From a virus, in the UHGV virus genome UHGV-2157276: a DNA stretch of 11,904 nucleotides. One strand, written 5' to 3'. Positions 7,499 to 9,694 of this stretch are shown one piece after another. Within the stretch, counting starts at the first letter, position 1. Every line of letters begins with the position of its first letter. The translations under genes were made by a program, and so were the position numbers. The notes below the pieces were generated by a model. The model made no database searches and was not told where the DNA came from. It saw nothing but the letters and a program-made list of their open reading frames with translations.

Positions 7499-7909
7499 TT
7501 AGCGTGGAAAGATTTGTGTAGTGTTCTGAATGCTCTCAGTAAATAGTAATGAATTATCAAAGGTATAGTAATATCTTTTATGTTCATGGATATTTGTAAC
7601 CCATCGGAAAACTCCTGCTTTAGCAAGATTTTCCCTGTATTGCTGAAATGTGATTTCTCTTGATTTCAACCTATCATAGGACGTTTCTATAAGATGCGTG
7701 TTTCTTGAGAATTTAACATTTACAACCTTTTTAAGTCCTTTTATTAACACGGTGTTATCGTTTTCTAACACGATGTGAATATTATCTGTGGCTAGATAGT
7801 AAATATAATGTGAGACGTTGTGACGTTTTAGTTCAGAATAAAACAATTCACAGTTTAAATCTTTTCGCACTTGATCGAATATTTCTTTAAAAATGGCAAC
7901 CTGAGCCAT
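7499..7909 (-). CDS. ybcV: YbcV-like protein (DUF1398 family), function unknown; 136 aa from the best-supported start
   Basis: ORF on minus strand; the ATG at 7907-7909 ([11 protein letters not shown]...) has AAGG 8 nt upstream. In-frame upstream starts at 7951 (ATG) and 8032 (GTG) lack an RBS. AT-rich gene. Confidence 0.7.
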
Positions 7910-8194
7910 TGGTAAAACCTTCCATGTGATACGAGGGCGCGTAGTTTGCATTATCGTTTTTATCGTTTCAATCTGGTCTGACCTCTTTGTGTTTTGTTGA
8001 TGATTTATGTCAAATATTAGGAATGTTTTCACTTAATAGTATTGGTTGCGTAACAAAGTGCGGTCCTGCTGGCATTCTGGAGGGAAATACAACCGACAGA
8101 TGTATGTAAGGCCAACGTGCTCAAATCTTCATACAGAAAGATTTGAAGTAATATTTTAACCGCTAGATGAAGAGCAAGCGCATGGAGCGACAAA

Positions 8195-8401
8195 ATGAAT
8201 AAAGAACAATCTGCTGATGATCCCTCCGTGGATCTGATTCGTGTAAAAAATATGCTTAATAGCACCATTTCTATGAGTTACCCTGATGTTGTAATTGCAT
8301 GTATAGAACATAAGGTGTCTCTGGAAGCATTCAGAGCAATTGAGGCAGCGTTGGTGAAGCACGATAATAATATGAAGGATTATTCCCTGGTGGTTGACTG
8401 A
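8195..8401 (+). CDS. ybcW: YbcW-like small protein, 68 aa, function unknown
   Basis: ATG at 8195 with GGAG 7 nt upstream; [68 protein letters not shown]. Confidence 0.7.
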
Positions 8402-8565
8402 TCACCATAACTGCTAATCATTCAAACTATTTAGCCTGTGACAGAGCCAACACGCAGTCTGTCACTGTCAGGAAAGTGGTAAAACTGCAACTCAATTACT
8501 GCAATGCCCTCGTAATTAAGTGAATTTACAATATCGTCCTGTTCGGAGGGAAGAACGCGGGATGT

Positions 8566-8760
8566 TCATTCTTCATCACTTTTAATTGATGTATATGCTC
8601 TCTTTTCTGACGTTAGTCTCCGACGGCAGGCTTCAATGACCCAGGCTGAGAAATTCCCGGACCCTTTTTGCTCAAGAGCGATGTTAATTTGTTCAATCAT
8701 TTGGTTAGGAAAGCGGATGTTGCGGGTTGTTGTTCTGCGGGTTCTGTTCTTCGTTGACAT
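8566..8760 (-). CDS. ylcI: YlcI-like small protein (64 aa) with predicted ribbon-helix-helix DNA-binding fold
   Basis: MSTKNRTRRTTTRNIRFPNQMIEQINIALEQKGSGNFSAWVIEACRRRL: basic N-terminal tail, beta-strand NIRFP, helix, G-x-N/S turn, second helix. This is the RHH (CopG/Arc/ParD-like) pattern. Confidence 0.7.
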   Translation of the reverse strand: MSTKNRTRRTTTRNIRFPNQMIEQINIALEQKGSGNFSAWVIEACRRRLTSEKRAYTSIKSDEE

Positions 8761-8959
8761 GAGGTTGCCCCGTATTCAGTGTCGCTGATTTGTATTGTCT
8801 GAAGTTGTTTTTACGTTAAGTTGATGCAGATCAATTAATACGATACCTGCGTCATAATTGATTATTTGACGTGGTTTGATGGCGTAGATGCACGTTGTGA
8901 CATGTAGATGATAATTATTATCATTTTGCGGGTCCTTTCCGGCGATCCGACAGGTTACG

Positions 8960-8971
8960 GGGCGGCGACCT
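8960..8971. other. cosN: lambda 12-nt cohesive-end site (GGGCGGCGACCT), flanked by cosQ-like and cosB-like sequence
   Basis: Exact GGGCGGCGACCT preceded by ...GATCCGACAGGTTACG (lambda right end) and followed by TCGCGGGTTTTCGCTATTTATGAAAATTTTCCGG (lambda left end). Confidence 0.85.
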
Positions 8972-9148
8972 CGCGGGTTTTCGCTATTTATGAAAATTTT
9001 CCGGTTTAAGGCGTTTCCGTTCTTCTTCGTCATAACTTAATGTTTTTATTTAAAATACCCTCTGAAAAGAAAGGAAGCGACAGGTGCTGAAAGCGAGCTT
9101 TTTGGCCTCTGTCGTTTCCTTTCTCTGTTTTTGTCCGTGGAATGAACA

Positions 9149-9694
9149 ATGGAAGTCAACAAAAAGCAGCTGGCTGACATTTTCGGTGCGAGTATCCGTA
9201 CCATTCAGAACTGGCAGGAACAGGGAATGCCCGTTCTGCGAGGCGGTGGCAAGGGTAATGAGGTGCTTTATGACTCTGCCGCCGTCATAAAATGGTATGC
9301 CGAAAGGGATGCTGAAATTGAGAACGAAAAGCTGCGCCGGGAGGTTGAAGAACTGCGGCAGGCCAGCGAGGCAGATCTCCAGCCAGGGACTATTGAGTAC
9401 GAACGCCATCGACTTACGCGTGCGCAGGCCGACGCACAGGAGCTGAAAAATGCCAGAGACTCCGCTGAAGTGGTGGAAACCGCATTCTGTACTTTCGTGC
9501 TGTCGCGGATCGCAGGTGAAATTGCCAGTATTCTCGACGGGATCCCCCTGTCGGTGCAGCGGCGTTTTCCGGAACTGGAAAACCGACATGTTGATTTCCT
9601 GAAACGGGATATCATCAAAGCCATGAACAAAGCAGCCGCGCTGGATGAACTGATACCGGGGTTGCTGAGTGAATATATCGAACAGTCAGGTTAA
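9149..9694 (+). CDS. nu1: Terminase small subunit Nu1, 181 aa, full length
   Basis: MEVNKKQLADIFGASIRTIQNWQEQGMPVLRGGGKGNEVLYDSAAVIKWYAERDAEIENEKLRR...; N-terminal winged-HTH. Overlaps the A start by 26 nt as in lambda. Confidence 0.95.
   Translation: MEVNKKQLADIFGASIRTIQNWQEQGMPVLRGGGKGNEVLYDSAAVIKWYAERDAEIENEKLRREVEELRQASEADLQPGTIEYERHRLTRAQADAQELKNARDSAEVVETAFCTFVLSRIAGEIASILDGIPLSVQRRFPELENRHVDFLKRDIIKAMNKAAALDELIPGLLSEYIEQSG

Follow-up and report, generated by a model that had tools for sequence, protein, structure and literature searches.

Introduction

The YlcI/YnfO proteins form an already known family of function unknown, represented in Escherichia coli K-12 by ylcI in DLP12 and ynfO in Qin, and our literature search found no experiment on any member, ylcI appearing only in mutation or excludon tables. 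Among described regulators, a parallel is offered by Arc and Mnt of phage P22 (PF03869), which are small phage proteins; in Arc, residues R13 and N11 contact bases, and L12 and W14 belong to the core. Here we examine a YlcI/YnfO gene in the virus genome UHGV-2157276, whose entire analysed stretch of 11,904 nucleotides is referred to as the window. An initial annotation, made from the sequence alone, had singled out a 64-residue open reading frame (ORF) at 8566-8760 as a ribbon-helix-helix (RHH)-like small protein abutting cos with no partner gene, and had offered three roles for it: a regulator of neighbouring cargo genes, an orphan antitoxin, or a packaging-associated DNA-binding protein. That interpretation is partly supported. 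The ORF is a real gene, the already catalogued but uncharacterised prophage gene ylcI, and on balance it probably encodes a small dimeric RHH (Arc/MetJ-type) DNA-binding regulator, an autoregulated repressor carried as a moron. We discuss below the gene and its family, its predicted fold, the operator-like repeats upstream of its homologues, and the comparison with known systems.

The ylcI gene and its family

The ORF translates exactly as first proposed, from an ATG start, into MSTKNRTRRTTTRNIRFPNQMIEQINIALEQKGSGNFSAWVIEACRRRLTSEKRAYTSIKSDEE (64 residues).

8566..8760, minus strand: ylcI coding sequence, ATG start, 64 residues plus stop codon, YlcI/YnfO family (DUF3950)

Its product is 100% identical to the translation of phage lambda 48112-48303, a stretch left without any feature in NC_001416; even in lambda, the most studied of phages, a conserved ORF 200 bp from cos goes unannotated in the reference record. 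The protein matches Pfam DUF3950 (PF13132; 72.8 bits against a cut-off of 25, E 1.9e-20), NCBIfam NF041551 (YlcI_YnfO_N; 37.6 bits against a cut-off of 30) and phrog_949 (function unknown; E 2.5e-35), and RefSeq names the identical sequence ylcI, "YlcI/YnfO family protein" (WP_001421937). When ylcI is compared with the copies of Shiga toxin (Stx) phages, the ratio of nonsynonymous to synonymous substitution rates (dN/dS) over the first 52 codons is 0.04-0.13, which indicates purifying selection and, together with the family matches and the RefSeq naming, argues that the ORF is not a chance reading frame. As the family is a known one, novelty is limited to the probable assignment of fold and function.

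Close copies of ylcI occur in 3785 of 5426 complete E. coli genomes (~70%), at up to 12 per genome, so that placing YlcI among the RHH regulators would offer a role that can be tested for so widespread a gene; the true family is essentially restricted to Enterobacterales, plus one Pasteurellaceae member. Many database "homologues" are noise, being error-laden lambda copies on ~3.5 kb contigs or lambda contamination in unrelated taxa. Such lambda DNA with ylcI, on ~3.5 kb contigs or at contig ends (loci L082-L112, L115, L118, L120 and L123; proteins P0001-P0120), is found under Streptomyces, Cohnella, Pedobacter, Enterococcus, an Arcanobacterium "plasmid", a "Campylobacter phage" and many ENA metagenomes, often in frameshifted variants, and looks like sequencing-control or spike-in contamination that inflates the family in protein databases. 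Small replicons or contigs (~8-13 kb) of Citrobacter, Enterobacter and Klebsiella carry a 175-residue variant with a long C-terminal extension (cluster P0244). Within the coding sequence of the window's gene, the direct repeat TGCGGGTT is present twice (8721-8743) and encodes a repeated basic N-terminal arm, R-T-R-R-T-T-T-R; overlapping it, a terminator-like hairpin was scored at 8720-8740 on the plus strand, that of the late transcript.

Predicted fold of YlcI

The AlphaFold2 (AF2) model, built as a single chain on a 40-sequence alignment, has a mean predicted local distance difference test score (pLDDT) of 74. Residues 1-18 are extended and are followed by a helix (19-32), a four-residue turn (33-36) and a second helix (37-63), and the whole resembles one chain of an RHH dimer. 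The beta-strand itself we infer, since a lone chain cannot form it. The corresponding codons are as follows.

8707..8727, minus strand: codons for residues 12-18 (TRNIRFP), the predicted RHH beta-strand (alignments, Arc register, extended in AF2)
8665..8706, minus strand: codons for residues 19-32, predicted helix A (AF2, block pLDDT 72-83)
8572..8652, minus strand: codons for residues 37-63, predicted helix B, from the NFSAWV..AC motif (AF2)

The top Foldseek matches in the PDB (NikR, NikA, ParD2, Arc, MazE9, VapB, MatP and HicB) are nearly all RHH proteins, the best at E 1.8 and none significant; named matches among the viral models of BFVD are RHH/CopG proteins, weak HicB-like matches occur besides the Foldseek list, and the weak RHH matches are consistent across three libraries. 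In an hhalign comparison with the Arc-family profile, residues 8-36 of YlcI align with Arc 5-34 (P 3.7e-4, probability 37%). That register places the invariant I15 and F17 on Arc L12 and W14, the invariant R16 on R13, and the variable position 14 on N11; along the strand, I15 and F17 are interleaved with R16 and with positions 12 and 14, in the way that L12 and W14 of Arc are with N11 and R13. Across 40 diverse members including YlcI, the invariant residues are I15, R16, F17, F37, S38, W40, V41, A44 and C45 (the IRFP...NFSAWV..AC core), P18 being nearly so, whereas family alignments show positions 12 and 14 to be variable and the C-terminal tail to be both short and variable. From this alignment, positions 12 and 14 are predicted to read DNA. 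Sequence and hidden Markov model (HMM) matches in the PDB to ribosomal L16 and to a GGDEF/EAL protein were set aside as noise.

An RHH fold for YlcI is likely, with weak to moderate support. The pattern first proposed agrees with the extended arm, the two helices, the one-sidedness of the structural matches and the Arc alignment, none of these similarities being statistically significant.

Operator-like repeats and genomic settings of the homologues

Beyond the close copies, a distant set of 39 loci was drawn from species-representative genomes. In 19 of these 39 the gene lies in a P4-like satellite or a capsid-forming phage-inducible chromosomal island (cf-PICI), in the order integrase, alpA, antA or another ORF, the lone DUF3950 gene on the opposite strand, icd-like ORFs, primase and capsid genes; the other distant settings are an integrative and conjugative element (ICE), an integrase island, a fimbrial/restriction island and an integrative element. 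Many of the satellite and island homologues are preceded by two to four copies of a dyad motif of 11-14 bp, which relative to the start codon lie near -105, -82 and -35. The copy closest to the gene adjoins a conserved GTATAGTGT, which resembles a -10 box, and the middle one adjoins an invariant CACGTCAA, whose other strand reads TTGACG and, judged by its resemblance to a -35 element, may belong to a divergent promoter. Of 27 loci, 12 have three or four copies, and no more than 3 of 100 shuffles produce that many. The motif varies from locus to locus, following the residues just before the invariant IRFP:

N-terminal arm STTKG[IV]RFP: motif GGTGCAYATACAC
N-terminal arm SAKKNIRFP: motif TGTGCGCACA
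N-terminal arm xYKGIRFP: motif TGTTTAAACA
N-terminal arm KNIRFED: motif TGGTACGTACCA

The pairing of the STTKG arm with GGTGCAYATACAC recurs on unrelated backbones, namely D5-primase satellites, Toprim-primase satellites, an integrase island and an ICE, which argues that the repeats are part of the gene's own cassette and not primase iterons. Upstream dyads that change with the predicted DNA-reading residues point to an autoregulated repressor cassette.

The settings themselves share a theme, and it is not cos. Throughout the family the gene is usually a lone one on the opposite strand, divergent from nu1 in lambda, from an HNH-TerS-TerL module in Stx phages and from icd-like/primase genes in satellites, so that what the settings have in common is a small gene that stands alone and diverges from the gene that opens an operon. 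Only one clade has the gene near cos: cosN lies ~200 bp upstream (within about 210 bp) in elements of the lambda, DLP12 and Qin types, and no lambda-type cosN was found within 6 kb at any of the 39 distant loci. In Stx phages the homologue sits between Rz and the HNH-TerS-TerL module, on the opposite strand and 42 bp from the HNH start.

These settings bear directly on the packaging role first proposed, in which YlcI would bind the cosQ side of cos and assist or modulate terminase. Such a role would agree with the 199 bp that separate the gene from cosN in lambda-, DLP12- and Qin-type elements, with the Stx phages, which keep the gene beside packaging genes although their HNH/TerS/TerL module is unrelated, and with some E. 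coli ORFs (P0198, P0255) in which DUF3950 is joined to the DNA-binding N-terminal region of a Terminase_2 small subunit. Against it, lambda can be packaged in vitro with purified components; ylcI runs against the late operon, when packaging proteins are made; the distant homologues occupy non-packaging settings; and in cf-PICIs the alpA and primase modules flank the gene, which is several kilobases away from the terminase genes. The accepted cos model, moreover, needs only cosQ, cosN, cosB, terminase and IHF (PMC9026076). As linkage to cos or terminase genes is not consistent across the family, we consider a packaging function highly improbable. The Rosetta-stone link to terminase was itself rejected: P0198 and P0255 join DUF3950 to the first ~50 positions of Terminase_2, RefSeq has P0255 as two pseudogene fragments, and these, lying at the border of a satellite that has inserted into the terminase gene of a prophage, are not counted as functional evidence.

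Two genomes deserve separate mention. E. coli 90-3040 (L177 8763-9530, 12749-12949) has three DUF3950-type genes within 4 kb, one in a lambdoid prophage upstream of HNH, a second in a satellite, where it is divergent from icd-like/primase genes, and the third encoding P0255; the satellite is integrated in the terminase gene of the lambdoid prophage. P0255, 120 residues long, is a hybrid in which DUF3950 is fused to the N-terminal part of a Terminase_2 small subunit; four GTTTAACAC repeats of its own precede it, and hundreds of E. coli contigs carry it. In Klebsiella pneumoniae ATCC 13883 (L162 6634-7608), a 324-residue ORF is called antisense to the DUF3950 gene and fully overlaps it; with no Pfam hit and an odd composition, and replaced by separate genes of 62 and 132 residues in related loci, it is probably spurious.

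The lambda-type copy and its possible targets

Upstream of the window's gene, the stretch as far as cos contains the following.

8761..8959, no strand assigned: intergenic region between the ylcI start and cosN, the expected place of the ylcI promoter and of any operator
8830..8862, no strand assigned: inverted repeat ATCAATTAATACG-N7-CGTCATAATTGAT, 85% complementary (repeat search), 70-102 bp upstream of the ylcI start
8866..8873, plus strand: TTGACGTG box (CACGTCAA on the ylcI strand), the same 8-mer being invariant upstream of nine satellite/island homologues (sequence)
8897..8924, plus strand: rightward promoter-like GTGACA-16-TATCAT, 10 of 12 matches (promoter scan; consensus match only), towards cos and nu1
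8930..8936, plus strand: gggtcct, taken here to be cosQ
8960..8971, plus strand: cosN, 12-nucleotide cohesive end gggcggcgacct (sequence; the region is 99% identical to lambda and DE3 with annotated cos)

The Qin-type loci L113, L116 and L119 have almost the same intergenic sequence. In the window, the inverted repeat at 8830-8862 is a candidate operator, and the -10 of the promoter-like site falls inside a perfect palindrome, ATGATAAT-A-ATTATCAT (8908-8924), just left of cosQ; to our knowledge, no promoter has been described at 8897-8924.

Several results weigh against the regulator reading. HMM searches of PDB sequences and of the RHH Pfam families gave no RHH match, and the RHH strand and the dimer would both lie beyond what the single-chain model contains. 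The promoter scan found no sigma-70 consensus on the ylcI strand within 8761-8959, and no repeat in the lambda-type upstream region exceeds chance, 63 of 100 shuffles doing as well. Lambda-type and Stx-type upstream regions share no motif despite the same strand residues in both proteins; an operator common to the two was rejected, as they share only CTGTCACAG-type 9-mers at non-equivalent places. Finally, the match between repeats and N-terminal arms could stem from co-inheritance of linked DNA and not from recognition.

A reading that would accommodate these results is that YlcI, although small and helical, has no DNA-binding activity and could, for example, bind to a host or phage factor and modulate it, its RHH-like pattern being coincidental. 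In its favour, none of the RHH similarities reaches statistical significance, the searches upstream of the lambda-type copy yielded no operator, and a two-helix hairpin is a common shape; yet the weak matches are consistently to RHH proteins across three libraries, the Arc register brings R16, which is invariant, and the variable positions to the DNA-reading sites of Arc, the N-terminus is basic, and repeat arrays travel with the gene across unrelated backbones. We consider this explanation unlikely, and a DNA-binding regulator, as was initially suggested, is the most likely of the roles, the lambda-type operator being the piece that did not come to light.

As an autoregulated RHH repressor, YlcI would work as follows. 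The basic N-terminal arm would lead into the beta-strand of residues 12-18, which would pair with the strand of a partner chain and enter the major groove, where R16 and positions 12 and 14 would read bases, while the helices at 19-32 and from 37 onwards would form the dimer core. The gene would be a self-contained moron of the low-GC block between the lysis genes and cos. Because the gene runs against the late operon, its expression would be expected in the prophage, and late transcription would shut it off. If the homologues are a guide, the lambda-type copy may repress its own promoter and a divergent one in the shared upstream region.

A broader version, which we think doubtful, sees in YlcI/YnfO an overlooked class of RHH proteins that act as master repressors of mobile elements in enterobacteria. 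In P4-like and cf-PICI satellites, their binding to the two to four dyad operators would keep the divergent icd-like/primase/capsid operon silent; in lambda-type elements the copy beside cos would silence, in the lysogen, a cryptic rightward promoter at 8897-8924 reading into cos, nu1 and A, or alternatively would engage in cross-talk with satellite copies. Were this true, YlcI/YnfO would be the repressor that Gram-negative PICIs are thought to lack; if the protein is only an autoregulated moron regulator, the gain is a routine improvement of annotation. The most interesting by-product is the satellite repeat architecture, which suggests a PICI/P4-like control element missing from published models.

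The ylcI neighbourhood and the antitoxin question

The window carries a defective lambda/DLP12-like prophage at the lambda attachment site beside ybhC, with the gene order int, xis, porin gene, lysis cassette, bor, ybcV, ybcW, ylcI, cos, nu1 and a truncated terminase large-subunit gene. The block from bor to cos has a GC content of 33-45%, against 47-55% in the flanking lysis and head genes, and 8100-9200 is 99% identical to phage lambda. Around ylcI the features are these.

8195..8401, plus strand: ybcW, homologue of lambdap79 of lambda (phrog_657, RefSeq), convergent with ylcI and between ylcI and ybcV
7499..8032, minus strand: ybcV (DUF1398; Pfam PF07166, E 2.6e-46), the next gene on the ylcI strand, 533 bp downstream
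9149..9694, plus strand: nu1/nohD, terminase small subunit (Pfam Phage_Nu1, E 9e-101; RefSeq), divergent from ylcI across cos
8438..8465 (arms 8438-8445/8458-8465), between the convergent 3' ends of ybcW and ylcI: perfect 8-bp stem GTGACAGA/TCTGTCAC with a 12-nucleotide loop (repeat search)

The initial annotation had given the spacing to cosN as about 200 bp and ybcW as convergent, and had named two inverted repeats; the distance from the ylcI start codon to cosN at 8960-8971 is indeed 199 bp, ybcW faces ylcI, and both repeats are present, the 8438-8465 stem and another at 8122-8129/8138-8145. The former has no T run and was not scored as an intrinsic terminator. The ybcW-ylcI pair is included in a list of convergent excludons from K-12 RNA-seq, which indicates transcription (PMC12288877). 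Between ybcV and ybcW, at 7971-7987, stands atctggtctgacctctt, the PdhR box reported for the DLP12 ybcV/ybcW spacer, and a pdhR deletion cut the mRNAs of both genes ~9-10 fold (PMC7660256); host pyruvate sensing may therefore drive the moron genes that neighbour ylcI. Against the closest complete genomes (L001) the window aligns as two matching pieces spanning ~17.8 kb, ~5.9 kb of the early region being missing from it; the truncated terminase large-subunit gene adjoins a tail-fibre gene fragment, and an Rfam scan of the whole window found no RNA family.

That no toxin-sized ORF lay on the ylcI strand, as first stated, is contradicted by ybcV, on the same strand, whose product has 136-177 residues by choice of start (136 with the RefSeq start at 7909). 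It matches PDB 2HH8 (YdfO; E 1e-71), a solved structure of function unknown. The claim that ylcI has no partner gene holds for the window, where ybcW intervenes on the other strand, and fails for Qin-type loci (L113, L114, L116, L117 and L119), where a DUF1398 gene (ydfO/ybcV) on the same strand comes directly after ynfO (77 residues), at a distance of ~20-45 bp. The antitoxin idea can accordingly be put in its strongest form: ylcI would encode a type II antitoxin and DUF1398 its toxin, the two being split here by insertion of ybcW to leave an orphan or long-range antitoxin. Many RHH proteins are antitoxins, the weak fold matches include ParD2, MazE9, VapB and HicB, the Qin-type arrangement has the order and spacing just described, and a database protein, P0167, reads as a DUF3950-DUF1398 fusion. 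The pairing, however, is confined to the lambda/Qin clade, and the gene is solitary in Stx phages, satellites, the ICE and islands; DUF1398 is not a recognised toxin, PADLOC giving no match for ylcI, ybcW, ybcV or bor; the C-terminal tail, which is the toxin-binding part of antitoxins, is short and variable in the family; ybcV lies 533 bp away beyond an opposite-strand gene; and its reported expression, like that of ybcW, depends on PdhR (PMC7660256). As neither the window nor most of the family has an adjacent co-directional toxin, an antitoxin function is very unlikely.

Comparison with known systems

The window's gene is a full member of the YlcI/YnfO family, in the same place as its K-12 counterparts, between ybcW and nohD/cos, and with no difference from them. 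RHH type II antitoxins (ParD and the CopG-like VapB, MazE and HicB C-terminal domains) resemble YlcI in size, predicted fold, basic N-terminus and weak structural matches, and differ in their adjacent co-directional toxin and in the C-terminal tail, which in YlcI is short and unconserved. Lambda Nu1 and Rpp, the PICI packaging redirection protein, are likewise small proteins encoded beside cos, and bind DNA as YlcI is predicted to, but they are winged helix-turn-helix (HTH) proteins (PMC6739421) of unrelated sequence, encoded by late-strand genes; Rpp, a mimic of Nu1, was ruled out as a relative.

With Arc and Mnt the likeness is closer. Strand and helix A align without gaps (TRNIRFPNQMIEQINIALEQKG against QFNLRWPREVLDLVRKVAEENG), R16 and N14 of YlcI fall at the DNA-reading R13 and N11 of Arc, both proteins have the order helix, G-containing turn, helix, and putative dyad operators overlap predicted promoters in YlcI homologues. 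On the other side, YlcI has no significant sequence or HMM match to PF03869, of which it is at most a putative member; its turn is one residue longer, and four to five longer in satellite members; its hallmark NFSAWV..AC motif is absent from Arc; and no antirepressor operon follows ylcI, unlike in immI.

For the satellite members the comparison is with Stl of Staphylococcus aureus pathogenicity islands (SaPIs) and other divergently encoded master repressors of satellites or prophages, and a role of DUF3950 in satellite control is a functional analogy only. The Stl proteins are larger HTH proteins of Gram-positive islands, and for Gram-negative PICIs an AlpA-dependent activation has been described and no repressor (bioRxiv 10.1101/2022.09.08.507074). 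The analogy lies in the arrangement: in P4-like and cf-PICI satellites the homologue stands alone on the opposite strand, its divergent neighbour being the icd-like/primase/capsid operon, and repeats cover both putative promoters.
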